Shown here piece by piece: positions 12,160-58,464 of a stretch of DNA of 62,793 bases. Numbering within the stretch: position 1 is the stretch's first letter; the number at the start of each line of letters is the position of its first letter. Both the position numbers and the translations under genes were made by a program. Under the pieces are notes generated by a model. That model did no database searches. It worked only from the letters and a program-made list of their open reading frames with translations, and had not been told where the DNA came from. This stretch comes from a virus (taxonomy: Duplodnaviria > Caudoviricetes): positions 1 through 62,793 of IMG/VR virus record IMGVR_UViG_3300035659_000011; one strand, given 5' to 3'.

Positions 12160-12357
12160 TCATTTGAAAAGTAGTTCTAATGTCAAAACTATCATTCCTC
12201 GATCATCTTTTTCTACAGCAATAATGCGCCGGCCAACAATATCATTAACTGGAATAGTGTCATTTGACATGTGACTATTATCATACATATACACTTTTTG
12301 CCATTGCGTTTTTTGATCATGCATGGCATAGTCAATATACACTTTCATTGTACTCAT
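12160..12357 (-). CDS. hypothetical protein
   Basis: 65 aa ORF coupled to the AAA gene (ATGA overlap). Confidence 0.55.
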   Translation of the reverse strand: MSTMKVYIDYAMHDQKTQWQKVYMYDNSHMSNDTIPVNDIVGRRIIAVEKDDRGMIVLTLELLFK

Positions 12358-15300
12358 AATTGAGGTTCTTCTGGACCAAAACCAACATTTTGGCTTTCTT
12401 CTTTTACATTTGACAACACTTCATTAAACAATGCATCAATCTCGTCCATATCATTATTAGCAAATCTTGCTCGTATTCCTTCGCGTCGCTCTTTGTCAAA
12501 GCCAACCCATTTAACTAGATGTTCTAATTGCTTTTCCATTGTCTTGGTAATTGGTATCTTAATACTTAATGCATGCTTCAAAATTTCAGTATTTAGATCT
12601 GTTTTGCCATCGACTTTATACATTTCAAAAGCGTCATACATAGCTTCATTGACTGCATGCTTGATTTCACGACCTGCTAAATGATTTGATGCTTCGCCTG
12701 CTAACAAATCTAAATCAAATTTTGCAGGATCTCGCTTATTATTCTTTATCTGAATTGCAATGATTTCTTTTCTTTCTGTAGGATCTGGTGGACCCACATA
12801 AAATACTGAATCATACCTTGACACTAATTCAGGCGGTAAAATGTGTATCTGATTACAAGTTGAGACGCTAAATACCCAAGAGTTATTATTATTCATCCAA
12901 ATCAAGAATATTCCAATTGTTCTAGCTGTCGTTCCGGCATCTGAAAATGATGAACTTTGCATGCCGGCAAAGCCCTTTTCAATTTCATCGATGAAGAGAA
13001 TGCAATTGTGAGTAAACATTTTATTTGCTATAAAGTTATGATGTTTATCTAGACAAAGATCATATACATCGTGATTTCCTTTGAGTTTTTGTTTGCTTTC
13101 AACTTTAGCAAAAAAGTAATCGTCAGATAAAAACCAAGGTAGTGATTTATCTTGTTGCAATTCTTGAAAAATTTGTCTAATCTTTGTTGTGGAAATATTA
13201 TGATTATGTTTAAGATCTAAATAAAATTGCAATTTTCGTTTGCTTTTAACAATACTTGATATACTCTTGTAAAAGCTTTGTCTTTTCCAGTCTTCATTTA
13301 TTAATTGTTTCTCTAGCAGTAAATTTATAAGATTTTGTTTGACATTCATAGTATCAAATCTACTGCATTCGCCGTTATGTCTTCCATCTAATGTTTTTAG
13401 TATACTTTTCTTTTTAGGATGTCTACTATTAATCTTAGTCTTGAACAACGTTAAAAAATTAGATGTAATATTTATAGGACAGTTATGATTACTTTTATAT
13501 CTTTTACCATATTCAGGTGTAATGATACCTACTCTGAGAAGCATGTTTCTTAAACATTCATTATTTTCAAATTTAGCTGCCGTATAATTTACTTTATTCC
13601 TAAACACACAACCGTCACCGTCTAGTACACCTGATAACCAAGCCCATTGAAATTTCTCATCTACAGTTAAAAGGTCTTTCTGAATTCGTCTCATAACTTT
13701 TGCTAAAATCAAAGGTATCCCATAAGTCACGAATTTATCATTTGTTCTGCAAAGATCTGCATCAAAATTATCTTTAAGAAAAGTAATTAATTCATTATGT
13801 AATGCTTGCTCTTTATTATAAAACCTTGTTTTGTTCTTATTTCTAACTCTTGTCATTCTATTTCTAGTCATTTCAAATGTAGCACTATCATATTTCCAAT
13901 AATTCTTGTTTCCTAAATTACCGTCAGACCATAATAGCCCAAGAATATAAGCAAAATCTTCAGAAAAGTTATTTGGAATTTTATTTATTGAGCTGTCAGT
14001 GTATCCTCCCAAACCTTCAACTATTTTAGTAATATCATTCGCAGTACTTATGTCAAGTTTGTACTTGATAATTTGCCATTGATAAACATAATTTTGTGTA
14101 ATTTGACGACCTTTTAGCAATTTTTTATCTAAAAGAGAAAGAAGATCTTTATGAAGTTTTTCAGAATAAAATCTAGTGTCTTTGTCAAAATATTCAATTA
14201 AATTAATTGTTTTGCTAGTCTTAATTTGTCGAGGACAAACTATAAAGTCGTCATTGCTCAACTGCGACACTGTTTTCCATTGTAAATTACCATCTGTTAC
14301 AAGTACGGGAAACATATGGTTACTTGTGGCTTTTATATCGCCAATATTTGTTACTACATTAAAGACGTCATTAGATTGCTTTTTTGTAATCAATTTAACT
14401 GTTGATGTCGTTATCTTAAACTCATCATCAAATGAGATCACATTTTGTCTATAATTGTTTTCATGTAATTCCTTTATGGTTGCGACTTGACCATCAGCCA
14501 GTGTTATTTTTGCATCTTCTGTTAAGCACGGTGCAAGACTTTCTATTCTTGCAAGGGCAAGGTGCATATTGCCTTCACTCTCACCGACTCTTGACGAAAA
14601 CACCTTTGACGGATCGAATTCCACAAGATTTAGATTCCATTCACTGGCGAGAGCTTCACAGATAAGACTCTTTCCGCAGCCCGGGAGTCCGATGAGTAAA
14701 CACCCCTTTACAATAGGCAATCCAAACTTTTGACCTTCATTAGTCCACCCACCATGCATTTTCTTGAACCATTTCTTAAGTCTGCCTAAACCGCCAACAT
14801 CTTTGAATGACACAGTTGATTCTTTGAATTTCAACAATGAAGTCTTATTAATAACTTCACGTTTAAGTGCATTAATTATGCCTGGATCCAATTTGCCTCG
14901 ACCTGAATTTTGTGAATCTTTTCGAGTAATGTCAATACATGCAGTAATCATTTGATGTATTTGAGGTATGATCAAACCTTTTAGAGCATTAACAATTTCA
15001 AAATCAGTACATAGTTCAACTTGCTTTTTCTTGTCTTTAATAGCATCATTGAATTTTGCGACCCAAGTCGTAATCTCTTCTTTTATCTCTTCTTCAGATG
15101 GATATGGATATGTAAAAACATCTACATACTTCTCTAATTTGCTTGGTAAATTAAGCTTTGAAGATAACAATACAACTATTTTAAGATTGCTGTCACTATT
15201 GTCAGCTTGAATAACAAAGTCTTTGAACCTACGAACAATTTGAGGATCTTCTAAATGATGATCTGCCTCTGTTATAATGTAGATTTGTCGTCGGTCTTTC

Positions 15301-15587
15301 TTATCTGCCTGATAAATCTGTATAAGTGCATTGTTGATTTCCATTGTTGCAGTATTATTAACACCCTTTTTCTCGTCAATATCATGTTTATAAGCCTGCA
15401 ACGGTATTATTCCTGTAGTAGACTTGTAAATAAATACTTCAGTTGTAAACTTATTTGATTGTCGCTGTGATAATCGTTCGATGCCCATTATCGCACGATG
15501 TTCATCATCAGTGAGGACATACAATAGCGGAGACATCTGGTCTAATTTAGACTGTAGATAGTCTATCGACAGCATGTTAATCTTCAT
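12354..15587 (-). CDS. Ycf46-like AAA+ ATPase containing an intein
   Basis: DVGGLGRLKKW, GLPGCGKS, VGESE, then after the intein ILFIDEIEKGF, LPPELVSR; degenerate N-terminal AAA domain. Confidence 0.9.
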   Translation of the reverse strand: MKINMLSIDYLQSKLDQMSPLLYVLTDDEHRAIMGIERLSQRQSNKFTTEVFIYKSTTGIIPLQAYKHDIDEKKGVNNTATMEINNALIQIYQADKKDRRQIYIITEADHHLEDPQIVRRFKDFVIQADNSDSNLKIVVLLSSKLNLPSKLEKYVDVFTYPYPSEEEIKEEITTWVAKFNDAIKDKKKQVELCTDFEIVNALKGLIIPQIHQMITACIDITRKDSQNSGRGKLDPGIINALKREVINKTSLLKFKESTVSFKDVGGLGRLKKWFKKMHGGWTNEGQKFGLPIVKGCLLIGLPGCGKSLICEALASEWNLNLVEFDPSKVFSSRVGESEGNMHLALARIESLAPCLTEDAKITLADGQVATIKELHENNYRQNVISFDDEFKITTSTVKLITKKQSNDVFNVVTNIGDIKATSNHMFPVLVTDGNLQWKTVSQLSNDDFIVCPRQIKTSKTINLIEYFDKDTRFYSEKLHKDLLSLLDKKLLKGRQITQNYVYQWQIIKYKLDISTANDITKIVEGLGGYTDSSINKIPNNFSEDFAYILGLLWSDGNLGNKNYWKYDSATFEMTRNRMTRVRNKNKTRFYNKEQALHNELITFLKDNFDADLCRTNDKFVTYGIPLILAKVMRRIQKDLLTVDEKFQWAWLSGVLDGDGCVFRNKVNYTAAKFENNECLRNMLLRVGIITPEYGKRYKSNHNCPINITSNFLTLFKTKINSRHPKKKSILKTLDGRHNGECSRFDTMNVKQNLINLLLEKQLINEDWKRQSFYKSISSIVKSKRKLQFYLDLKHNHNISTTKIRQIFQELQQDKSLPWFLSDDYFFAKVESKQKLKGNHDVYDLCLDKHHNFIANKMFTHNCILFIDEIEKGFAGMQSSSFSDAGTTARTIGIFLIWMNNNNSWVFSVSTCNQIHILPPELVSRYDSVFYVGPPDPTERKEIIAIQIKNNKRDPAKFDLDLLAGEASNHLAGREIKHAVNEAMYDAFEMYKVDGKTDLNTEILKHALSIKIPITKTMEKQLEHLVKWVGFDKERREGIRARFANNDMDEIDALFNEVLSNVKEESQNVGFGPEEPQL
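13005..14528 (-). mobile_element. intein (508 aa) with LAGLIDADG endonuclease, inserted just before Walker B
   Basis: AP|CLTEDAKI..., block B IKATSNHMF, YILGLLWSDG and WLSGVLDGDG, ends VYDL..HNFIANKMFTHN|C. Confidence 0.92.
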
Positions 15588-23552: not shown

Positions 23553-24850
23553 GTGAATTGCCAAGTGAATGGCTTTCTGCTTCAACGAACACAACTTACG
23601 CTAATATATGGCGAAGCCACACGTAGCGCAGAGGTCGCATTCTCCACAGACGTAAATTCCCTATATTCCATAGGTACATAGCTATTATTACATTGTCCGA
23701 CATGTAGTATTGTCTTCGCTGCTTTTACGTCGCGATCTTCTACTAAGCCACATAAACAAGTGTAAATTCGCTGCGATCGAGGTATATCGTTAATCTTACC
23801 ACACTTGTAGCACAACTTAGTTGTAGGAAACCATTTATCAACTACACCTACACTATTAGAGCGCTTAAGTTTTGACTTTACTAAGCCCATACAACTATGC
23901 TGCACTTGAGCACCATAATCAGTCGAGTGCCACTTATGCAGCTGTTCGTCTTGAATATACACGTGTTCATGATTCATTAATAGGTAATTAACGATCTTAT
24001 TGGCAGCGTCTAACTTTTTGTTCTTAATCTTCTCATACTCTTGCTGTAACTTAATTTGCGTTTTGTATCTATTGTTAGAACCCTTAAACTGCTTAGCTAG
24101 CTTTCGCTGCAAGCGCTTAAGTCGTTCTGTTTCTTCAATACATACATTAATCACTTCACCATTTGATAAAGTCAAATTGTTCTTAATCCCAAAATCAATA
24201 CCAATAGCCTCCTTTTTCTTGACGTTAAGTGTTTCAGGTTTTATGAACTCATAGCAGGTAAGTTTGACATAATAGCTAGAGGGTTTTTGGATTAGTTTCG
24301 CGTTAGCTATTTCGTAGTTTTCTTTTACTTGATCTAGACCATACACTAATAATAGTTTCTTGATACCATTTATTCTAATTCTGTTACCAACTATTTTGTG
24401 AGTATTACCGTATTGTGACAAGTCAATAGAATTACATGACGATTTGAACTTGAGTCGTCCAACTTTCTTACCTTTTTTCTTAACAATAGATAGTGTGCGA
24501 ATACTTTGATGTAAAAGCTTTACTATGTCTTGCTTATTCTTCGCTGGTAGGTATTTGAGTTCTTTTTGTTCTAGTTGTTTGTCTTTATTGAGGACAGTGA
24601 CAGTTGATGTTTTTGAACTAAAGTCAAATGGATTTTCTTGTGATAAGATGAAATTATAGAGCCATTTAGCTTCTACAAACATCATTTTCAAAGAAGTAGC
24701 TTGCTGTAAGTTTAGTTTTGAAGAGTCTATTTTAAGTTCTATGACTTTACAACGTTGCGATTGACGTTTCAATCGAGTGAGTCGAAGTGATTCCTTTATT
24801 TTGTTTCGCTTTTCTTCTTTCATATAAATCACACTCGAAATAAAAACTAA
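23553..24850 (-). mobile_element. non-autonomous IS200/IS605-like element (IS1341-type); boundaries approximate
   Basis: tnpB followed by GAAGCAGAAAGCCATTCACTTGGCAATTCAC, resembling an IS605 right end that finishes in TTCAC. Confidence 0.55.
23582..24823 (-). CDS. tnpB: TnpB RNA-guided endonuclease (IS200/IS605 family), no tnpA
   Basis: IGIDFGIK, Zn finger CYKC..CLC, DRDVKAA; likely start MKEEKRNK. Confidence 0.9.
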   Translation of the reverse strand: MKEEKRNKIKESLRLTRLKRQSQRCKVIELKIDSSKLNLQQATSLKMMFVEAKWLYNFILSQENPFDFSSKTSTVTVLNKDKQLEQKELKYLPAKNKQDIVKLLHQSIRTLSIVKKKGKKVGRLKFKSSCNSIDLSQYGNTHKIVGNRIRINGIKKLLLVYGLDQVKENYEIANAKLIQKPSSYYVKLTCYEFIKPETLNVKKKEAIGIDFGIKNNLTLSNGEVINVCIEETERLKRLQRKLAKQFKGSNNRYKTQIKLQQEYEKIKNKKLDAANKIVNYLLMNHEHVYIQDEQLHKWHSTDYGAQVQHSCMGLVKSKLKRSNSVGVVDKWFPTTKLCYKCGKINDIPRSQRIYTCLCGLVEDRDVKAAKTILHVGQCNNSYVPMEYREFTSVENATSALRVASPYISVSCVR

Positions 24851-24851
24851 T

Positions 24852-25238
24852 TCAACTGTCATTTGTGCTTCTTATAGCCAGCAGTATGTCGATTTGTTCA
24901 AGAATGAATTGGTATCTACGTGAAATCTGTTCCCACGTCATCCCTCGTTGGCTTAAAGATTGGTCATATCGTTTCGATATACGTTTCTTTAGCCATTCCA
25001 GTGAGTCTGTATCATCTGGCATTTTTAGTTTACTAGCGTAGAGAATTCCCAAGAAATTCAATACTTGATCATCATCAATTTGTGTTATTTGCAAACCTTT
25101 AGTGCCAAGAATTTTGTTTAGTAACCAATTTGTGTTTATTTCACTTGCCGCATATTTGACTTTGATACTGTTAGTTATTAACGGAACAGTTCCGTCTTGA
25201 GCAACTTTCAAATTTTGATTCATGATTATTACTAGCAA
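24852..25238 (-). CDS. hypothetical protein
   Basis: 128 aa ORF. Confidence 0.65.
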   Translation of the reverse strand: MLVIIMNQNLKVAQDGTVPLITNSIKVKYAASEINTNWLLNKILGTKGLQITQIDDDQVLNFLGILYASKLKMPDDTDSLEWLKKRISKRYDQSLSQRGMTWEQISRRYQFILEQIDILLAIRSTNDS

Positions 25239-31775: not shown

Positions 31776-34700
31776 TCATACTTCTTTTGCCATCTCGTCG
31801 TACTTTGCAAGTTTTTGTTCTTGTTCTAATGTCTTCTCATATACATTGCCAATACAACAAATGTCAAGCAAATCTATGAAGATACGACCCATATACTCAC
31901 TAGTTTCTGCATCACCAACTAAAATATTGTTCATCTTAATAACTTCTTCAACTGGTACTTTCTGATATTTACCAGTCACATGATTCCAAACAAAAGCAGT
32001 CTTGCATCTACGATTATAACATGGTATCCGAATTTTGACAATATTGAATTTTGAATCAGTCAAAACTGTGTAGTAATAACTGTTATTATTCTTGCTAGTT
32101 TTTTGTACAATACTAGTAATTATACCCCAAACAGTTCGTTTCATATTTGCTTTTGGCTGTACTAACTTTGTCAACGTTTTAGCATTTAATCTACCAACTT
32201 CTTCTTTATGTAGATCAGATAATTTTGTTCGCCAATCTAAACTATATGATTCTACAAATTGTTCATGTTCATATTTACGGTCATCATAGTCAACATCGCG
32301 TTCCCATTTACTATCTCCCCTTAAGTCTTTATAGTATTTCTGTAATATCTCATTCTGCGTGCCAAAACAATCAAATACATGTGCGTTTATCAAAGCTAAC
32401 ATTGCCGATTTACCGACTTTCTTTATTTGTGAAGTCTTATCCCAAAAATCACCAAATGATGTAAATGGTTGCGTTCTCTTAATCACATCAATAATTGCTG
32501 GTCCGACACCCATAATATGACCCAAACCAAATATGATACTATTACTCTCACTATCTATAGTAAATCCCTCTTTTGACTTATTGATATCAGCCGGAACAAT
32601 ACTAATATTCTTTCCCATAATCTCAGAGAAATAATCAGTGAACTTCTCTTTCGGCGAATTTGTTAGCAACACTACATAAAACTCTAATGGATAATAAATC
32701 TTAAACCACATCATTTGATAACTGAGAATAGTATACGCTACAGCGTGGCTCTTATTGAATCCGTAGCGCGCAAATGACACGCAGCTTTGCCACCATGACT
32801 CAGCAACATCAGCCTTAAGGCCTCGCTCAACGCAGCCATTGATGAATTTATCATGTATTTCTTTTCGTTGTTTAGCCTCTTTATCTTTTGCATCTTTATC
32901 TCTAATAGACTTCATCAAATTCTTACGAACAGTATCAGTCAAGTCCAATGGAAATCCTGCTACTATATTACACAACCTCATAACATCTTCTTGATATACC
33001 AATATACCAAAACTATCTTTCAAACATCTTTCAATCAACGGTGATCCAAAATCGAATGACTTACCATTCTTGCGAGCAGCATATTCATGATGCATGCCCA
33101 TATCTAATGGTCCTGGCCGACCCAATGCAGTTGCACTAGTAATGTCATTGAATGTTGTTGGTCTAATCTCTTTCAACAACGACTTCATTAAATTACTATT
33201 GTGTACTACAAACCCATTTGCAACATAGTTGTGATGTTGTCTATCTGTAAACCCAATATCGTATACTAACTTTTCACCAATAAAATCAATACGCGTTATC
33301 GGTACAAACACATAACGTTTTTTGAAAAATCTAAACTGGCTTAACACCTGAGGCATGCAAGTTCGTTTACCTTCACAAATGCATTTCTTACAATCAGCTC
33401 CAACACCCTTTGACTCAATAGTCTTATCATAGACATTACAGTAATATTGAGTTCTACATCTTTGTTGATCAATAAGTACTTTGTCACCGACTTTCAATTC
33501 AGATAATTTCTTGAAACCTTGGAGCGTATAATATTCGTGAGTCATTGTTGATTCAAGGCACTTATTATCATGATCAACAGTGACTCTATAAACTTCTTTA
33601 AGCTGTTCTTTCATTGCATAAATTGTTTGTCGAACTTTCTTCTTACGTTTAAGATCAACACAACCAATTTTGCGAACCCTCTTACTTGAAACATAAATGT
33701 CTTTGTCTCTAAAGTCTCTATATAGTTCTCTTATTCTGTAATTGCCAATCCATGAATCACCAGCAATACATTCAAACTGGAAAATACCATTTGTATCTGT
33801 ATGTCTAAATCTATCATATATGACTTCATTACCATCTAATGGTAATTTACTTGAAAACTCTTCATACAATAATGATGTTATTTGACCACGATCAATTGAC
33901 TCAAGACTGAAATCAGCTTCTTTACTATACAGTTTTCGTAATCGAATCAAATCCAATATCTCTTTTATGATTGTTAGAGTCTTTAGTCCTAAAATATCAA
34001 ATTTGATGAAGCCTGAAGATTGTAAGTCTTTTCTAGTAATACCATCAACCCAACTTGTTATGAGATCACCTTTATGTCTCATTAAAGGTATTGTCTCATC
34101 AATTTTTGTAGGAGTTGCGACAACTCCTGCAGGATGTTTTGTGAGGTGTCGTAATTGACCTTTGAGTTTGAATAGTACTTCACGAACTTGAGGATATCGT
34201 TCAAGATATTTTCTTATTTCATACAAGTCATTTCTGAAACCGTCTTCACCAGGTTCTTTTGCAATGGCAATATCAAATTCTTCTTCAGTCATCGCATCTA
34301 CATCATCACCAAGATTTTTAACAACTTCATTAGTGTCATTCAAATCAACATCAAAAATTCGAGCTATATCTCTCATGACCATTTTCATTTTCATTTGGCC
34401 ATAAGAACCAATAGCTGCTACGTGGTCACTACCGTATTTGTTAATGAAGTATTTGACGACGTCTTCACGTTCATTTATACTGAAATCAGAGTCAATGTCT
34501 GGAAATGAAGATTGCTTTTTGATTTTGATAGCTATATTGTTTTTGATAGGATCAGAGTCTGAGATACCAAGTAAGAAGTAGACTAATGAGCCATGCTTTT
34601 CTATTTTAGTTTTGTTTTTGATTAGGTCAACAACATAGTCTTGAATGTTTTGTACATCAATGTTGGTCAATTCACGTTCAAGTTGTTGTATGTATTGAGT

Positions 34701-34808
34701 ATTGTCTAATGACAATTCTTTCAGTTTTCGTTCACAAAGGTATTGGACATAATCTAGTTTTGTAATCATGATATTTTCTATACTTATTGGTGCTACTGAA
34801 TTACTCAA
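31776..34808 (-). CDS. dnaE: DNA polymerase III alpha, C-terminal part (palm/fingers/HhH/OB) with mini-intein
   Basis: FPDIDSDF, KHPAGVV, IKFDILGL, GIFQFE, ALGRPGP, LVYQED, YGFNKSHAVAY. Confidence 0.93.
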   Translation of the reverse strand: MSNSVAPISIENIMITKLDYVQYLCERKLKELSLDNTQYIQQLERELTNIDVQNIQDYVVDLIKNKTKIEKHGSLVYFLLGISDSDPIKNNIAIKIKKQSSFPDIDSDFSINEREDVVKYFINKYGSDHVAAIGSYGQMKMKMVMRDIARIFDVDLNDTNEVVKNLGDDVDAMTEEEFDIAIAKEPGEDGFRNDLYEIRKYLERYPQVREVLFKLKGQLRHLTKHPAGVVATPTKIDETIPLMRHKGDLITSWVDGITRKDLQSSGFIKFDILGLKTLTIIKEILDLIRLRKLYSKEADFSLESIDRGQITSLLYEEFSSKLPLDGNEVIYDRFRHTDTNGIFQFECIAGDSWIGNYRIRELYRDFRDKDIYVSSKRVRKIGCVDLKRKKKVRQTIYAMKEQLKEVYRVTVDHDNKCLESTMTHEYYTLQGFKKLSELKVGDKVLIDQQRCRTQYYCNVYDKTIESKGVGADCKKCICEGKRTCMPQVLSQFRFFKKRYVFVPITRIDFIGEKLVYDIGFTDRQHHNYVANGFVVHNSNLMKSLLKEIRPTTFNDITSATALGRPGPLDMGMHHEYAARKNGKSFDFGSPLIERCLKDSFGILVYQEDVMRLCNIVAGFPLDLTDTVRKNLMKSIRDKDAKDKEAKQRKEIHDKFINGCVERGLKADVAESWWQSCVSFARYGFNKSHAVAYTILSYQMMWFKIYYPLEFYVVLLTNSPKEKFTDYFSEIMGKNISIVPADINKSKEGFTIDSESNSIIFGLGHIMGVGPAIIDVIKRTQPFTSFGDFWDKTSQIKKVGKSAMLALINAHVFDCFGTQNEILQKYYKDLRGDSKWERDVDYDDRKYEHEQFVESYSLDWRTKLSDLHKEEVGRLNAKTLTKLVQPKANMKRTVWGIITSIVQKTSKNNNSYYYTVLTDSKFNIVKIRIPCYNRRCKTAFVWNHVTGKYQKVPVEEVIKMNNILVGDAETSEYMGRIFIDLLDICCIGNVYEKTLEQEQKLAKYDEMAKEV
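33198..33770 (-). mobile_element. mini-intein (191 aa, no endonuclease)
   Basis: FQFE|CIAGDS..., ESTMTHEY (block B), ends VYDIG..HNYVANGFVVHN|S. Confidence 0.9.
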
Positions 34809-35686: not shown

Positions 35687-37534
35687 CTATTCATTAAGCT
35701 TGATGAGTCTATTCTTTGACCATTCATCAAAATCTTCGTCCATAAACAACTCAGCTTTATCTTCAATCTCTTTGAATGTCGGTACTGACATATCATATAT
35801 AGCCATACTTCGTGACATACTCAAAAATCTCTCGAACAACAAATTAAACTTCAATGGATCGATATTTGTAATATCTAGAAGATAACAGACGAGAGACCCA
35901 GCAGCTGATCCGCGAGCACTCCCTACGACAACGTTATTATTTTTTGCATACTTAATGTAATCTGCTACAATTACAAAATAATCGGCCATCTCCGTCCTTC
36001 TTATAACGCTCAATTCTGTTTTAACTCGCTTTACATGCTCACTATTTTCTTCATACCAACTGTCTTCTGCTTTTCTAGTCCAACCTTCGCGAACCATTGA
36101 TACCATATAGTCATAACTACTAGCGAAACCTTCAGTCTGTATCTTTGGTAACTTCTCTTTCGTATCCCATTCCCATACTTCAACTTTATTTGCTAACTTA
36201 ATTGTATTGTCAAGAGCTCTTGTAAAAGTCTCAACATTAACGTATTCATAATGACCTTGGTCAATATATGTATCTATCATCTGGTGACGATCTTTGAACC
36301 AAAAACCCTTAGTAGAAAACTCCCAAACTTTCTTGAATTTCTTCTTACCAGTAACAATATCAAATATCTCTTCAAATGTAATCCCTAATTCTTTATTTGT
36401 TGCAGGACTAAATTCAGCAAATCTGTCAAGCTCAATAAAATTGTTATAAACAGATCGAACGTGAGCTTGAGTTATATCTTCACCAATCTCAACTAATATC
36501 TCTGAAATCACATTCATCCTCTTCTTATCTTTCATCGTAACTTGATCGCCACCATCATCTTTTGACCCGAGCATTAATGATATCTCTTGAGCTTTAGCAC
36601 CACTCTCATCTAAATAATGAACGTCATTTGTTACAATCACTTCTATACTCAACTCTTCAGCAATTTCTAGTAATAATTTATTCACAACTCTTTGTTTGTC
36701 AATCTCAATCATCATAATTTCAATATAGAAATCTTCACCAAAAATGTCTTTATACATTTTGGCAGCTAACAATCCTGCTACTTTTGCATCTTTCTCATTA
36801 TCGTGTTTCAACATTTCATTGTTAATGATTCCTGCAAGACATGCAGATGTAACAATGATGCCTTCTTTATTTTCAGACAAAAATTGCAATGACGTTCGAG
36901 GTTTGTAATAGAAACCATTTCTAGCAGCATCACTAACAATTTTAGTAATGTGTTTACGACCAGTTTCATTCTTTGCTAACAATACAATGTGCTGATTTCG
37001 CTTTAATGCATCTCGACTGTCTGACAATTCTTTGTCTTGAGCTTGTAATTTTTTAAGATGCTTGTCAAGTTTTTGTTTAACTTCAGAATAATCTAATACA
37101 GTAATATCTTCAAACTCTGCAGTTGGCATCTCTAGTATTTGCCTGAAGAAATCAACATTTGCTACAAACAACACTTTATTTGCTTTTTTATGCTTGATTG
37201 AATTCTTTAATACTTTAACTTTTTCATCTATCTTATCGAGTGCCGTATTGAAAGCTTCAACTTCTTCTCGTTTATTTTGCAGATACATTTCTACACCAAC
37301 AATTGGCTTCAAATTCACAGATCTACAATACATAAAGAATGAAGGATGAGCACCAATACTTCCATGATCTGTGATTGCTAATGCAGGCATACCAAGCTCA
37401 ACTGCTCGTTTAGCATATTGGTTTGGTTTGCCGATACCGTCTTTGAGCGAAAAGTCACTATGTAAGTGTAGGTGAATGAAATCTTTTTTCTCACCAGTTT
37501 TATATAATGCTTGTCTAATTTCTTCTTTGTCCAT
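35687..37534 (-). CDS. dnaE: DNA polymerase III alpha, N-terminal part (PHP domain to the RGS/FERF motifs)
   Basis: HLHLHSDFSLKDG, ITDHG, HIVLLAKN, SACLAG, TNDVHY, RGSAAGSLVCYLLDIT.IDP, FERFL. Confidence 0.93.
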   Translation of the reverse strand: MDKEEIRQALYKTGEKKDFIHLHLHSDFSLKDGIGKPNQYAKRAVELGMPALAITDHGSIGAHPSFFMYCRSVNLKPIVGVEMYLQNKREEVEAFNTALDKIDEKVKVLKNSIKHKKANKVLFVANVDFFRQILEMPTAEFEDITVLDYSEVKQKLDKHLKKLQAQDKELSDSRDALKRNQHIVLLAKNETGRKHITKIVSDAARNGFYYKPRTSLQFLSENKEGIIVTSACLAGIINNEMLKHDNEKDAKVAGLLAAKMYKDIFGEDFYIEIMMIEIDKQRVVNKLLLEIAEELSIEVIVTNDVHYLDESGAKAQEISLMLGSKDDGGDQVTMKDKKRMNVISEILVEIGEDITQAHVRSVYNNFIELDRFAEFSPATNKELGITFEEIFDIVTGKKKFKKVWEFSTKGFWFKDRHQMIDTYIDQGHYEYVNVETFTRALDNTIKLANKVEVWEWDTKEKLPKIQTEGFASSYDYMVSMVREGWTRKAEDSWYEENSEHVKRVKTELSVIRRTEMADYFVIVADYIKYAKNNNVVVGSARGSAAGSLVCYLLDITNIDPLKFNLLFERFLSMSRSMAIYDMSVPTFKEIEDKAELFMDEDFDEWSKNRLIKLNE

Positions 37535-51178: not shown

Positions 51179-51210
51179 AATAAGAATTTGAAATAATGGA
51201 GATGGAGGGA

Positions 51211-51450
51211 CACATAATCTACAATTTTCATTGTAGTGTGGACTATCTCTTTATCCATTGGTTATGGATAACGGGCGCTAATAGAGGTTTATTGATTGAG
51301 TTTCTCACCTCTTAGTCTCTGCACCTTCTGACTTACAACTGTCCTCTTCGGTCAGCTTGGCTCAGGGTTATCATGTCATTTCTGATTTAGAGTTCCCTGA
51401 ATTCACCCGTTTTTCATTAGTCATTACTGACCAATGCGACCATTTTGTTA
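51211..51450 (-). mobile_element. group I intron (240 nt, no ORF) in the tmRNA T-loop
   Basis: P AATTCAGGGAA, Q AACCCTGAGC, R GTGCAGAGACTAA, S AAGAGATAGTCC; 5' exon ends in U, intron ends in G; removal restores a 7-nt T-loop. Confidence 0.88.
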
Positions 51451-51669
51451 ATCGAACCCTCGTCCAGAATGCAATCCGTAACAGCTACTACATGTTTATC
51501 TGGTTCTACAAAGCGCTCTCATTCAATACTCAGAACCAGCAAGTTTCATAGATGAGAGCCGTAGATGTAATTTCGGTCACCTTCTCTACTACGATTCGGT
51601 TACCCTATCCACATATGAATTGTCAGACTCTAACTGCTGTGGCTCCATCAGAATCTTAGTTGCTTTTAA

Positions 51670-51756
51670 TTAAGCAACAGCTGCAACCGGCATCGCCATT
51701 TCGCACATTGCAGCGAACTGCATAGCGAAACGGATTCCGGCATTAACTGTTTTGGC
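51670..51756 (-). other. tmRNA proteolysis tag reading frame (A)AKTVNAGIRFAMQFAAMCEMAMPVAAVA*
   Basis: Starts at GCC after TAACT; Ala-rich hydrophobic C-terminus. Confidence 0.75.
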
Positions 51757-51938
51757 AGTTAAATTTCGACCGGTATTTTTAGGAGGCCAACGATCATCCT
51801 CCACATGCAACTGTGACTTCACACAATCTGTCGAAAACCAGGTCATCCCCATAATTTCAAAGAACATGAATATCAACCTTATCAATCAATTAATCAAGCC
51901 ATATATCGATGTAACTCATCATAAAGACCTCTTAATGT

Positions 51939-54124: not shown

Positions 54125-55354
54125 TCAACCCACTAAGATTTCAGTCTTAGTCGGTAATCCCATCTTATCCAACAAATTGATAAAAGGCACAGGGTCTAAC
54201 TCTTCTACGTTTACCATAGTCTTAGAATCCCAGATGCCATTTGCTACTAATATTGCAGCAGCTGCTACGGGCACTCCTGCAGTATAACTAATCGCCTGTG
54301 AATCAGTCTCCTTGTAACAGTCTTTATGATCGCACACATTGTAGATAAATATCTCTCTATAATTACCTAGTCGTTTACCCTTAACTAAACAACCAATACA
54401 AGTCTTACCAACATAATCGGGAGCCAATGTCTTTGGATCTGGTAAACATGCTTTCACTACTTTCAACGGTATAACATCTAATCCTTCAGCTGTCTTGACA
54501 GATTTCTCTGACAATAGTCCAATATTCTTTAACACATTGAAGCAATTGATATAATGGTCACCAAATCCCATCCAAAAACGTATACTATTAGCATCAATGT
54601 TTTGAGACAATGAATGCAATTCATCATGTCCTGATAAATAAATAGTCTGTTTACCAACTTCTGGAAAATCATACACTTTCTTTACTTCATGCATCTCATT
54701 AACTACCCACTTACGGTCAATCCATGACATGACTTTTCCAGTAAACTCCCTAAAATTAATCTCAGGATCGAAATTTGTAGCAAAATACTTACCATGACTT
54801 CCAACATTCACGTCCATAATATCTATTGTGTCAATTACATCAAAGTAATTTCTAGCAGCTAATGCGCAATATGCATTAACAACTCCCGGATCAAACCCAA
54901 TACCCAAAATAGCAGTAATTCCAGCTTGTTTGCAAGCTTCTCTCTTTTTCCATTCGTAATTTCCATACCACGGCGGTGGCTCACACACTGTAGCCACTCT
55001 ATCAGGATGCTCATAAACAGCAGTGTCTATATACGCCACGCCAGCTTCAATGCAAGCATCTAAAACTGACATGTTTACAAACGGTGATGCCAAATTGAGT
55101 ACTATAGTAGATTCTGTCTCTTTTATCAACTCGATTACTGACTTAGTATCTAGAGCATCAACACTGGTTGATGATAGCAATTTCGAATTGTCTTTCATAC
55201 TATCATGACTAAAAACACTCTCAAGTATATCGTCACACTTGCTTCTAGTTCTAGATGCTATGCAAATGTTTCCCAAAACATCATTATTTTGCGCACACTT
55301 ATGTGCTGCAACTTGTGCCACCCCTCCTGCCCCGATGATTAGTGTGTTGTGCAT
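54125..55354 (-). CDS. carboxy(nor)spermidine dehydrogenase/synthase (saccharopine dehydrogenase family)
   Basis: IIGAGGVAQVAAHKCAQ, YIDTA, GFDPG, FATNFDPEINFRE, SQAISYTAGVP; adjacent to nspC. Confidence 0.92.
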   Translation of the reverse strand: MHNTLIIGAGGVAQVAAHKCAQNNDVLGNICIASRTRSKCDDILESVFSHDSMKDNSKLLSSTSVDALDTKSVIELIKETESTIVLNLASPFVNMSVLDACIEAGVAYIDTAVYEHPDRVATVCEPPPWYGNYEWKKREACKQAGITAILGIGFDPGVVNAYCALAARNYFDVIDTIDIMDVNVGSHGKYFATNFDPEINFREFTGKVMSWIDRKWVVNEMHEVKKVYDFPEVGKQTIYLSGHDELHSLSQNIDANSIRFWMGFGDHYINCFNVLKNIGLLSEKSVKTAEGLDVIPLKVVKACLPDPKTLAPDYVGKTCIGCLVKGKRLGNYREIFIYNVCDHKDCYKETDSQAISYTAGVPVAAAAILVANGIWDSKTMVNVEELDPVPFINLLDKMGLPTKTEILVG

Positions 55355-55362
55355 GCATACTC

Positions 55363-56466
55363 CTACGATAAATTGTATTTATAGTCTTCATATCCAAATT
55401 TGCGCACAGTATCAATAGATCCACCAATTCTCTTGACAACAATTGCGGGCATTTGCAAACCATTAAACCACGTCTTTTTAACCATGGAATAGCCAGCTGC
55501 ATCTAAAATACGCACTGTGTCACCGACCTTGAGAGGCGTTTCAATCTCGCAATGACCAAAAATATCTCCAGCTAAACATGACCGACCAGCAATCAAATAA
55601 TAGTTATGACCATTGTTTCTTCTATCAAATTCTGACTCAACATTGTAAATCAATCGATCTAACAAATGCGCCTCAACTGAAGCATCAACTATCGCAATAT
55701 CAATCTCATTATGCACAATATCGACAACTGTCGTAACTAACTCTGCAGCATGAGAAATAGCAGCTTCACCCGGTTCAATGTAAATTTGAATATCAAACTT
55801 ACTGCTAAATGACTTCAACTTATTACAAAACATATCAAACGGATACTTACTTTCAGTAAATAACACTCCTCCACCCAAACTTACCCATTTCAATTTCACT
55901 AAAACATCACGATACATGTTACCAATAAAGTCTAACATATTTGAAAAGTCATCAAAGTCTTCATTATCGCAATTAAAATGAAACATTGCACCGCTAATCA
56001 ATGGCAAAACACTTTCAACTTCTTTCTTATCAATAACACCAAGACGTGAAAATTTACGGCCAGGATCAGCTAAATCATAATCAGAATGACTAACGACAGG
56101 ATTTATTCGAAGACCAATTGGCAGGTCAGCCACTATAGAATGATATGCTTTTAACTGTGATACAGAATTGAAAATGATCTTACTAGCATATTGTCTAATG
56201 TCTTCTACATCTTGTTTTGAATAGCCTACGCAATAAGCATGTGTTTCTTTACCAAAAGTCTCATATCCTAATCGAGCTTCATACAAGGAAGAACTAGTAG
56301 TACCATCCATGTATTTTTTCATTAAGTCAAATACAGACCACATTGAAAAACATTTCAATGCAAGCAGAGATTTTGCACCAGAAATATCTCTTACACGCTT
56401 GATTTTTTCAAGATTGTGTAGTAGTTTACTTTCGTCAATAAAATAATACGGCGTGGGAATAACCAT
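55363..56466 (-). CDS. nspC: carboxy(nor)spermidine decarboxylase
   Basis: TPYY, LLALKCF, SSLYEARLG, SRLG, SLGGG, EPGEA, SCLAGDIFG, YSMVKKTWFNG. Confidence 0.93.
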   Translation of the reverse strand: MVIPTPYYFIDESKLLHNLEKIKRVRDISGAKSLLALKCFSMWSVFDLMKKYMDGTTSSSLYEARLGYETFGKETHAYCVGYSKQDVEDIRQYASKIIFNSVSQLKAYHSIVADLPIGLRINPVVSHSDYDLADPGRKFSRLGVIDKKEVESVLPLISGAMFHFNCDNEDFDDFSNMLDFIGNMYRDVLVKLKWVSLGGGVLFTESKYPFDMFCNKLKSFSSKFDIQIYIEPGEAAISHAAELVTTVVDIVHNEIDIAIVDASVEAHLLDRLIYNVESEFDRRNNGHNYYLIAGRSCLAGDIFGHCEIETPLKVGDTVRILDAAGYSMVKKTWFNGLQMPAIVVKRIGGSIDTVRKFGYEDYKYNLS

Positions 56467-56519: not shown

Positions 56520-56595
56520 TGGCGTGCCTGGAGAGATTCGGACTCCCACTATCGGTTTCGTAAACCGATCCCCTATCCAGTTAGGAAACAGGCAC
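56520..56595 (-). tRNA. tRNA-Arg(ACG)
   Basis: GTGCCTG/CAGGCAC acceptor stem, anticodon arm TCGGT-TTACGAA-ACCGA, encoded CCA; T-loop reads TCCGAAT (C at 55). Confidence 0.88.
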
Positions 56596-56602
56596 GCAAA
56601 AA

Positions 56603-56676
56603 TGTCCCTAGAGAGACTCGAACTCTCAATCTGCAGTTTAGGAAACTGCTGCGCTATCCAGTTGCACCATAGGGAC
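56603..56676 (-). tRNA. tRNA-Arg(CCT)
   Basis: GTCCCTA/TAGGGAC acceptor stem, anticodon arm GCAGT-TTCCTAA-ACTGC, TTCGAGT T-loop; no CCA. Confidence 0.9.
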
Positions 56677-56805
56677 AGATGTTCGTCTAAAAATATCTAA
56701 ATCTTTACAGTATCGTTCAACAAATCGTCTAAGTGATGTATGACTAATATTTAACAATTTTGATGCTTCGCTCACCCAACCAAATTTACTTGTATCTATA
56801 GTCAT
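56677..56805 (-). pseudogene. HTH-bearing fragment, probable remnant of an endonuclease gene within the tRNA array
   Basis: Translates TIDTSKFGWVSEASKLLNISHTSLRRFVERY and runs into tRNA-Arg(CCT). Confidence 0.4.
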
Positions 56806-56844
56806 CAATGCGCATCACTGCAGCTAAAATACATCATGAAAGCT

Positions 56845-56920
56845 TGGCTGGGGCCCGGAGATTTGAACTCCGAACTACATGCTCCAAAGGCATGGGCTCT
56901 ACCAATTGAGCTAGACCCCA
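56845..56920 (-). tRNA. tRNA-Gln(TTG)
   Basis: U1-A72 start TGGGGT, G73, CCA; anticodon arm CATGC-CTTTGGA-GCATG. Confidence 0.87.
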
Positions 56921-56927
56921 TCATAAT

Positions 56928-57002
56928 TGGTCGGGACAGCCGGATTTGAACCGACGACTACAACATCCCAAATGTTGTATGCTACCACTGCATTACGTCC
57001 CG
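56928..57002 (-). tRNA. tRNA-Pro(TGG)
   Basis: CGGGACG start, anticodon arm CAACA-TTTGGGA-TGTTG, A73, CCA. Confidence 0.92.
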
Positions 57003-57178: not shown

Positions 57179-57221
57179 TAATCAATTCTATTAGCGTAGA
57201 GTAATCAATCTATTAGCGTAG
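57179..57221. repeat. near-tandem ~21-bp direct repeat at the 3' end of tnpB
   Basis: TAATCAATTCTATTAGCGTAG (57179-57199) and TAATCAATCTATTAGCGTAG (57202-57221). Confidence 0.75.
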
Positions 57222-58464
57222 TGGTTAATTCATTACTAGACCACTTGTCATGATCTAGCAACATCCTTGAAAAGCTTACGCTCTCCAAATGGGCTAACCA
57301 CGAGCCCTTAATTGGTATGGCGCTGTCACCACAGTAACTCTTCATGATATTCACTGCCCCATTACCATCTCTTGTGAATATCAAAGAATCATTCAGCTTC
57401 ACTATGCGATCTGACAGCTTCAGCTCTGCGTCAAATCGCTCATTTGTCAAACAATTAGTACAGCTTGTATAAGCCTCATTCTGCCTGACAAATAATATAC
57501 CCTCGTCAAGTACTTTGTACTCAATGAAAGTTCTAAATCTACTCAGCGTGCCCTGATTCTGAGTTGATTTATTCAATCCCCTATCCTTCGCTAACTTTGA
57601 ATCTTTCACTAACTTCTTAGTCTTTATGTCACCATAAACAACTTTCGACACTTCATTTTCTATACAGTAATCTACAATCTTCTTACTGACTTTATGCTGA
57701 AAGTCTTTATTCTTATTTGCTAGTTTTTTCTTGCAACGTTTATAAATAGCTGCTAGTCTTTTATATCGTCTAGAGTATTTCTTTTTCTTGTCACGAAGTG
57801 ACTGTATGACTTCTATTCTTTTTTCAAGCTGCTTGTGAAATTGATCGTTTGGTATTTCTATAATCTCTTTCTTATCTGGGTTGTAGATTGTAGCTATGTT
57901 AGTAACGCCAGGATCTATAGAAATTAGTTTCTCTTGAGTGAACGTTTTGACTTTTTTGGGTTCACTATAAGTGAAGATAGCGAAGTACACATCATCTTCT
58001 TTTTTTATTTGCAAAGTTTTAAGAGTACCTACAATTGTTTTACAGTAATCTGGTAATTGAATTTCTAATACTTTTGCTGTTTCAATGTAGTGATTTTCAA
58101 TAAAAATAGTTAAAATATTGTCATTTAGTTTGAAATTGCAATTACGCCATTGAATAGTTGTAAAGTACTTCCACGATTTGAATCTATATGGGAGTCTAGC
58201 TGCTTTGTCTGTTTTCTTTTTAGCAAGATAGCTTTTCACACTATTGATTAGTGTTTTACAAGTTTCATAAGCCGGTCTATATTGTATAGTTAAATTGTTC
58301 TCTCGCCTAAACTTGCTACATTCCTTACTGAACCCTACAATTGTACCAGTGTTTTTCGCATGTTCAAGTAAATGATTATACAATAGTCTATGTTCATTAG
58401 ATAGTGTATTCAACACTAACTTCTGATACCACGACAAATTAAGTTTAACTTTTAACGCTTTCAT
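57205..58464 (-). CDS. tnpB: TnpB-family RNA-guided endonuclease with rearranged RuvC-II
   Basis: MKALKVKL N-terminus, RLLYNHLL, ISIDPGV, VVYGDI, QNEAYTS, RDGNGAVNI. Confidence 0.87.
   Translation of the reverse strand: MKALKVKLNLSWYQKLVLNTLSNEHRLLYNHLLEHAKNTGTIVGFSKECSKFRRENNLTIQYRPAYETCKTLINSVKSYLAKKKTDKAARLPYRFKSWKYFTTIQWRNCNFKLNDNILTIFIENHYIETAKVLEIQLPDYCKTIVGTLKTLQIKKEDDVYFAIFTYSEPKKVKTFTQEKLISIDPGVTNIATIYNPDKKEIIEIPNDQFHKQLEKRIEVIQSLRDKKKKYSRRYKRLAAIYKRCKKKLANKNKDFQHKVSKKIVDYCIENEVSKVVYGDIKTKKLVKDSKLAKDRGLNKSTQNQGTLSRFRTFIEYKVLDEGILFVRQNEAYTSCTNCLTNERFDAELKLSDRIVKLNDSLIFTRDGNGAVNIMKSYCGDSAIPIKGSWLAHLESVSFSRMLLDHDKWSSNELTTTLID

Follow-up and report, generated by a model that had tools for sequence, protein, structure and literature searches.

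A predicted tmRNA gene on a viral contig with a group I intron inserted in its T-loop

Results

The window analysed here is the whole 62,793-nucleotide (nt) stretch of the IMG/VR virus record IMGVR_UViG_3300035659_000011 (Duplodnaviria; Caudoviricetes), a 62.8-kb record estimated by CheckV to be 31% complete. On its minus strand, at 51850..51197, lies a transfer-messenger RNA (tmRNA) gene in which the T-loop is split by a 240-nt group I intron (51450..51211), as identified with covariance models and in silico splicing. Exon 1 (51451..51850, tmRNA positions 1-400) contains the acceptor 5' strand, pseudoknot 1, the tag frame, the downstream pseudoknots, the T-stem 5' strand and T-loop bases 1-6; it is supported by the Rfam tmRNA model RF00023, by ARAGORN after excision of the insert and by compensatory changes in a relative, L122, described below. 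Exon 2 (51197..51210, tmRNA positions 401-414), assigned by sequence reading and ARAGORN after excision, contains the last T-loop base, the T-stem 3' strand, the acceptor 3' strand and the discriminator A. The acceptor strands read GGGGAUG (51850..51844) and CAUCUCC (51204..51198, with the discriminator at 51197) and form 7/7 pairs, the G3.U pair (G3.U70) among them; CCA is not encoded, TTA directly following the discriminator. The T-stem 5' strand GAGGG (51461..51457) and T-loop bases UUCGAU (51456..51451) are separated by 240 nt from the seventh T-loop base, a U, and the strand CCCUC (51210..51205), and excision of the insert gives 5/5 T-stem pairs and a 7-nt loop. The tag reading frame (51670..51756, minus strand), called by ARAGORN and kept in L122, comprises 28 codons with resume codon GCC and stop TAA and encodes the 28-residue peptide AKTVNAGIRFAMQFAAMCEMAMPVAAVA, which ARAGORN reported with the comment 'Tag not identified'. 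A 71-codon open reading frame (ORF; 51670..51885, minus strand, TTG start) shares the tag frame and ends at the tag stop, and gene callers could misreport it as a (hypothetical) protein.

Both Rfam models matched the raw DNA above their gathering thresholds (47 bits for tmRNA RF00023 and 50 bits for Intron_gpI RF00028). The tmRNA model scored 86.7 bits (E 3e-32) over 51842..51449, corresponding to the 5' 394 nt of the gene, and left the 3' T-arm and acceptor strands unaligned because the insert intervenes. The intron model scored 103.7 bits (E 8e-26) over 51460..51219, aligning along its full length (1-253 of 253). ARAGORN called no tmRNA in the raw window DNA, reporting four tRNAs at 56520..57002, and after excision of 51450..51211 it called a 414-nt tmRNA (51850..51451 + 51210..51197). 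An earlier, sequence-only reading of this DNA had described the tmRNA ends with their G3.U pair, the tag frame, the split T-arm and the 240-nt insert, all of which were found where it had placed them on the minus strand. It had further claimed that the insert follows a U, ends in G and could form a P1 between CGAU and GUCG with a U.G pair, features seen in both the sequence and the Rfam alignment, and its proposal of a phage tmRNA with a T-loop split by a group I intron, removal of which rebuilds the tRNA-like domain, is borne out by the covariance models, in silico splicing, two relatives and covariation. Its expectation that standard finders would miss the gene held for ARAGORN but not for the Rfam tmRNA model, which matches the unspliced gene above threshold, albeit without the 3' end.

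A helix model of the intron drawn from the Rfam alignment and by inspection comprises P1 to P9 and an additional hairpin at the P7.1 position. P1 and the 5' splice site (51437..51454, minus strand) were assigned from the sequence, the Rfam alignment and exon-guide covariation in a second relative, L284. Exon bases CGAU (51454..51451) together with intron bases UA pair with the intron segment UGGUCG (51442..51437), the splice-site wobble being U51451.G51440, and the 3' terminal base of the intron is G51211. The remaining helices are P2, P3 (8 bp), P4 (6 bp), P5, P6, P6a, P6b, P8 and P9, with GNRA loops capping P2 (GUAA), P5 (GAAA) and P9 (GAAA), the last followed by an 8-nt tail closing on the terminal G. 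In the guanosine-binding helix P7, the 3' strand UAGUCC (51240..51245) pairs with a 5' strand at 51319..51313 that contains a bulged A. The extra hairpin (AGAGGU...ACCUCU, 51283..51312, 30 nt, 6+3 bp) lies between P7 and P3', and is followed by AUUAG and then P3'. No ORF of at least 50 aa was present within the intron on its own strand, and no homing endonuclease gene was found within or adjoining the intron.

The insert separates the sixth T-loop nucleotide from the seventh, a site designated position 7 in PMC11915505. When excisions with boundaries within +/-8 nt of this junction were submitted to ARAGORN, 50/289 still yielded a tmRNA call. ARAGORN was rejected as arbiter of the exact splice sites on this account; it places the insert in the T-loop, not at an exact junction. 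Twelve of the accepted excisions remove exactly 240 nt, and only 51450..51211 has both a U at -1 and a final G. The exact boundaries derive from group I rules and the ligated loop is the canonical UUCGAU-U.

Relatives with the same arrangement were identified in other assemblies. DNA contigs of other sediment runs contained an approximately 93%-identical relative with the insert (X6 record 16, 14,450 nt, and X4 record 11), these being independent assemblies of the same architecture, and none of the joints listed for these contigs skipped the whole 240-nt insert as expected of an intron-less allele. An exact 40-nt intron probe retrieved the relative from JGI metagenomes as loci L121 and L122, both with a 240-nt intron at the same site as in the window. 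L122 is syntenic with the window, its NMNAT-like gene being 77% and the upstream ORFs 72% identical. The intron differs from that of the window in 4/240 columns (98% identity) and the tmRNA exons in 43/414 (90% identity; Fisher p = 1.2e-5), with 0/14 differences in exon 2, whilst directly downstream of the gene 13/21 positions differ. Three double compensatory changes were observed in the tmRNA of L122, at 42/365 (U-A to C-G), 203/218 (A-U to G-C) and 211/240 (A-U to G-C), the first of these pairs belonging to the long helix of the Rfam consensus. Three further changes affect one side only and maintain or generate a pair, and no pair is broken in the helices tested. In L122 the tag frame is unchanged in length (28 codons) and at both ends, and differs by five synonymous and seven replacement codon changes. 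Two of the four intron changes preserve pairs (G.U to A-U in P2 and C-G to U.G in P6b). Relative to the window, L122 is also longer by approximately 430 bases in the interval from the tmRNA 3' end to the NMNAT-like gene (1461-1915) and by approximately 190 bases upstream of the tmRNA (2636-2830).

A scan with the pattern GGTTCRAY-N35-65-AATTCAGGGRA gave 82 viral loci, and 1/80 examined, L284, is a tmRNA; the other 79 (L281-L360 except L284) yielded no tmRNA or tRNA in a T-loop excision screen. L284, from a viral contig of 416 kb that CheckV estimates to be 77% complete, comprises a 405-nt tmRNA and, at the same T-loop subsite, an intron of 236 nt; identity to the window is 62% for the tmRNA and 75% for the intron. 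Its tag ANKIGSVFGAQFALQFAAMCAKAPAMAA also has 28 residues and is related to the window tag. The L284 T-loop reads UUCAAU (exon CAAU) with guide GUUG, in place of UUCGAU and GUCG in the window, and on sequence comparison the two substitutions compensate each other across the exon-intron boundary and would preserve P1. Exact 33-nt junction and 23-nt 5'-end probes gave no matches in viral contigs, the latter being a poor probe because it spans two positions that vary in L122, and no syntenic viral loci were confirmed by way of the flanking NMNAT-like protein.

The intron fold was assessed using a structure-blind MAFFT alignment of 43 homologues, 8 tmRNA-borne and 35 tRNA-borne, covering 71 model pairs and 2523 cells. 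Standard pairs occupied 83.1% of cells compared with 66.5 +/- 0.6% after shuffling, none of 500 shuffles reaching the observed value; pairing fell to 32-44% when partners were slid, and the covariation score was 0.349 against 0.113. P4 and P7 were invariant, all six P7 pairs being identical in 43/43 homologues, and many double changes were observed in P2, P3, P6a, P8 and P9. P3 was paired in 86.9% of cases, and 5/8 of its pairs had changed on both sides. The P7.1-position hairpin was 56% paired in a region that aligns poorly, with double changes in 4/5 outer pairs; stem variants among relatives include AGAAG/CUUCU, GGAGG/CCUCC and GGGUG/CACCC. The predicted intron fold is supported by this covariation across the 43 homologues.

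To place the intron within a wider family, a core pattern taken from it (CCTGAGCCAAGC-N8-38-AAGGTGCAGAGACTA) was searched as an exact match and was found in at least 117 viral stretches, 80 of which were examined. Five of the 80 are tmRNAs with T-loop introns, four at position 2 and one at position 3, and eight are tRNAs with anticodon-loop introns. With L284, these narrow exact-pattern scans gave six further viral-contig tmRNA genes with T-loop introns (5/80 and 1/80 loci). On viral contigs the same core pattern is shared by introns at three T-loop subsites of tmRNAs (2, 3 and 7) and by introns in tRNA anticodon loops. In the position-2 loci L025, L041, L042 and L063 the introns follow T-loop base 1 and are 196-197 nt long; these introns are 89-95% and the tmRNAs 59-90% identical, the same asymmetry as seen between the window and L122, and the tags of the four loci have a common ...M..LGL... 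motif. Greater identity of introns than exons fits intron mobility, although stronger constraint on the ribozyme core could equally yield it. Among the five position-2/3 tmRNA contigs, G155 was the only one checked for viral nature and showed a mixed gene context (Lon-like protease, Hsp20, endolysin-like, HNH). On the same contig a free-standing HNH/endonuclease VII-like ORF (L373, 9114-9662) adjoins the intron-bearing viral tmRNA L042 (position 2), and this ORF is a candidate for endonuclease-assisted intron mobility.

In bacteria the core pattern was present in at least 120 stretches, and 71/80 examined are tRNA anticodon-loop introns, mostly in Gln-CUG, Arg-CCG and Asn-GUU tRNAs with a few other isoacceptors. 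One of the 80 is a tmRNA, L139, from a Bacteroidia metagenome-assembled genome (MAG), with the intron at position 8. Many of the tRNA-borne relatives carry the P7.1-position hairpin and a few (L125, L150, L152, L180) are without it. In a sample of 151 genomes from the class of L124 (Clostridia), 29 introns scored above the cut-off, 21 of them in tRNA-Asn or tRNA-Asp; none of the 29 lies in a tmRNA by the screen used, and one of four scanned with Rfam sits in 23S rRNA.

Amongst 50,697 cultured-phage records, the closest hits to the intron came from the Asteriusvirus coliphages TH47 and Turkey5, which match part of it at 68-76% identity. The introns of these phages score 95-100 bits with Rfam and have the core and P7.1-position hairpin of the window intron, but lie within a tRNA and are followed by an HNH endonuclease gene, whereas the window intron lies in a tmRNA and is without an endonuclease. 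In Turkey5 (L002, 2405-2764 of PQ471516.1) and TH47 (L003) the intron is unannotated and inside an unannotated tRNA, with no feature annotated beneath the intron match in the Turkey5 record. With its intron option, ARAGORN identified a tRNA-Arg (ACG) with a 230-nt intron at the Asteriusvirus locus, the annotated HNH gene coming directly after.

The distances from the tmRNA gene to the two contig ends are 11 and 51 kb, and nearly all large ORFs of the window are on the minus strand. Predicted products include a sigma factor, ATP-dependent ligase, SbcC-like ATPase, ribonucleotide reductase, RuvC, RecA, ThyA, SSB, a 5'-3' exonuclease, a helicase, a NusG-like antiterminator, a primase, an NMNAT-like protein and GIY-YIG endonucleases. 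Replication-type genes flank the tmRNA on both sides, and several match PHROG families; the context of the tmRNA is a huge-phage replication module. The 416-kb contig that carries L284 encodes a RecA-like protein with 65-73% identity to that of the window, and on this contig 27/31 tRNA matches fall within 60.8-90.4 kb, around the tmRNA at approximately 70 kb. The RecA-like gene of that contig (G153:C1:246275-248659; L363, L364) gives two match blocks in one 807-aa frame, a pattern suggestive of an intein, or of some other insertion, without counterpart in the window gene.

Several other features of the window were noted, all on the minus strand. DnaE (Pol III alpha) is distributed over two ORFs (31776-34808 and 35687-37534) with two small ORFs between them and an intein-splicing domain in the C-terminal ORF, and an AAA ATPase (12354-15587) carries an intein with a LAGLIDADG domain, making this a region rich in selfish elements. 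TnpB/IS605 OrfB-type genes are present at 23582-24862 and 57205-58464, the second adjoining the tRNA cluster at 56520-57002. Between the tmRNA and this cluster lies a polyamine-type enzyme pair (54125-56466), a saccharopine-dehydrogenase-like protein and a pyridoxal phosphate-dependent decarboxylase, which resemble carboxynorspermidine dehydrogenase and decarboxylase.

Discussion

Intron forms of bacterial tmRNA genes were reportedly described by Williams in 2002, and the first tmRNA intron was reportedly labelled IA3. The sequence-only reading had likened the window intron to subgroup IC3 (tRNA-Leu type). The core does match that of bacterial tRNA anticodon-loop introns (71/80 loci), which are classed as IC3. 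In the Michel-Westhof classification IC3 introns are said to be without extra helices between P7 and P3'; the window intron has the P7.1-position hairpin, as do published tmRNA introns and many of the tRNA-borne relatives, and IC3 is a partly fitting label. The bacterial tRNA anticodon-loop introns (bioRxiv 10.1101/2020.01.27.920355) have the same catalytic core, and many a hairpin at the P7.1 position; the window intron differs from them in its insertion in a tmRNA T-loop and in a guide sequence adapted to the T-loop.

The main published comparison is PMC11915505, which reports 883 unique intron-form bacterial tmRNA sequences in 21 phyla, most with the intron at T-loop position 7. The statement in the sequence-only reading that such introns are rare and known from a few Firmicutes is in consequence outdated. 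The window gene has the same T-loop position 7, U at -1 with a G in P1, final G and rebuilt T-loop as these bacterial genes. The part of the seed alignment compared by eye shows the same order past P7, namely a variable hairpin, a CUAGG-like motif (AUUAG in the window) and P3'. The supplementary file, which also contains other models and alignments, includes 65 instances of the core motif AUAGUCC and 3 of GGUGCAGAGAC. Known members are stated in the same source to score at least 225 bits with its tmRNA_intron covariance model, to have a mean intron length of 293 nt, and to contain homing endonuclease genes in 23/844 sequences, mostly in the P7.1 region; the commonest tag length is 10 residues. 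The window intron, at 240 nt, is below this mean, and its tag is 28 residues long. The published set, as far as covered, comprises bacteria and a few nominally archaeal MAGs, whereas the window gene is on a large phage genome. In the sections of the text consulted, the sole phage tmRNA mentioned is an intron-less DS6A fragment, and the word 'phage' does not occur in the part of the supplementary file searched. No published report of an intron-bearing phage tmRNA was found, although the tmRNA database and the supplementary tables of PMC11915505 may contain some. The window locus is the known 'intron form' at its main site, and the phage setting is the new part.

Large phages with a tmRNA, tRNAs and translation or transcription genes are described in Al-Shayeb et al. 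2020 (PMC7162821) and, for phage G, PMC12484599, and the window resembles these. In both studies tmRNAs were called with ARAGORN, so that such genes could be overlooked; 'intron' is absent from the main text of PMC7162821 and 'group I intron' from that of PMC12484599.

Taken together, these data make it very probable that the locus is a phage-encoded intron-form tmRNA gene. The minus strand would be transcribed, possibly jointly with neighbouring genes, as no convincing promoter of its own was seen and the neighbours are all on the same strand. The 240-nt intron is predicted to fold and allow exogenous guanosine to attack after U51451, at the U.G pair in P1, whereupon the freed 3'-OH of the 5' exon would attack after G51211 and the exons would be joined. 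Ligation would restore the 7-nt T-loop UUCGAU-U and position the 3' strands of the T-stem and acceptor. Processing of the 5' and 3' ends and CCA addition would then give a 414-nt tmRNA that could be alanylated via G3.U70, loaded by host SmpB and used to tag stalled nascent chains with the 28-residue peptide. The intron itself is most readily viewed as a selfish element, one that would home to the near-invariant T-loop and be tolerated because it splices.

A number of observations weigh against this interpretation. Transcription and splicing are inferences from DNA, and P10 comprises at most 1-2 pairs by inspection. A promoter scan for the tmRNA gene gave 4 sites compared with 3.3 +/- 1.7 in shuffled sequence, that is, chance level, and no terminator for the gene was found. 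SmpB (PF01668) was detected neither in the window nor in any of four other viral records that are related or analogous to it; all these records are incomplete. The pseudoknot-2 helices were drawn by hand with knowledge of the L122 differences, which leaves two of the three double changes short of full independence as tests. The window genes seen are of replication type, with no virion or terminase gene among them, and two terminase Pfam families gave no match on the 416-kb relative. The viral assignment of the window consequently rests on IMG/VR, CheckV and gene content, and is strong but not proven.

This last point bears on the possibility that the tmRNA is a host bacterial gene, on a misclassified bacterial or plasmid fragment or at a prophage integration boundary. 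As reported, tmRNA genes are frequent integration sites of islands and prophages (PMC11915505), and large putative plasmids have similar translation gene sets (PMC7162821), as would be expected were this so. The tmRNA is, however, embedded 11 and 51 kb from the contig ends between same-strand PHROG-matching genes, in a gene order conserved in L122, and a homologous intron-bearing tmRNA lies within the tRNA array of the 416-kb viral contig. Inteins, free-standing homing endonucleases and TnpB genes are also as dense here as is typical of large phages, and a host origin is accordingly considered very unlikely. Less likely again is that the insert is an inactive relic, or the gene a pseudogene, remaining unspliced and giving no functional tmRNA. 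The weak P10, the lack of a homing endonuclease in or beside the intron and the failure to find SmpB would all accommodate such decay. Yet the core helices are all intact, the Rfam match spans the full model, and P4 and P7 agree with the invariant pairs of the 43 homologues. The intron has changed in only 4/240 columns relative to L122, two of these changes preserving pairs, where flanking genes are 72-77% identical, and exon and guide covary in L284 with the tmRNA helices and tag frame maintained.

An improbable but more serious alternative is that the gene is expressed and spliced in a role other than ordinary ribosome rescue benefiting the phage. The tmRNA may compete with or replace that of the host, add a tag that does not direct degradation, or serve as a sensor or a decoy. 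At 28 residues, against the commonest 10 in PMC11915505, the tag is unusually long, and ARAGORN fails to recognise it. A tRNA-like tmRNA fragment of phage DS6A is reported to inhibit host tmRNA (cited in PMC11915505), and phage use of tmRNA to sense host state is mentioned by Al-Shayeb et al. (PMC7162821). Against such a role, the full set of tmRNA elements is present. Moreover, the tag has an Ala-rich end, ...PVAAVA (...PAMAA in L284), which we take to resemble those of ordinary degradation tags.

An intron-form tmRNA gene carried by a phage has several implications. Counts of phage tmRNAs are probably underestimates, because huge-phage surveys and phage annotation pipelines use ARAGORN, which misses intron forms. 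As an ORF-less ribozyme of 240 nt with three GNRA loops, the window intron is an easy substrate for in vitro splicing. The window, L122 and L284 provide matched pairs in which intron and host gene are unequally diverged, making mobility versus vertical descent testable. Group I introns are documented invaders of T-loops in bacteria, and such invasion appears to be recurrent in phage-borne tmRNAs. We tentatively raise the possibility, on balance a doubtful one, that huge phages are a reservoir and shuttle for tRNA- and tmRNA-type group I introns. If true, this would imply ongoing movement of introns among phage tmRNA genes without an intron-encoded endonuclease, perhaps aided by neighbouring free-standing HNH or GIY-YIG enzymes, and could explain the spread of T-loop introns to 21 bacterial phyla.

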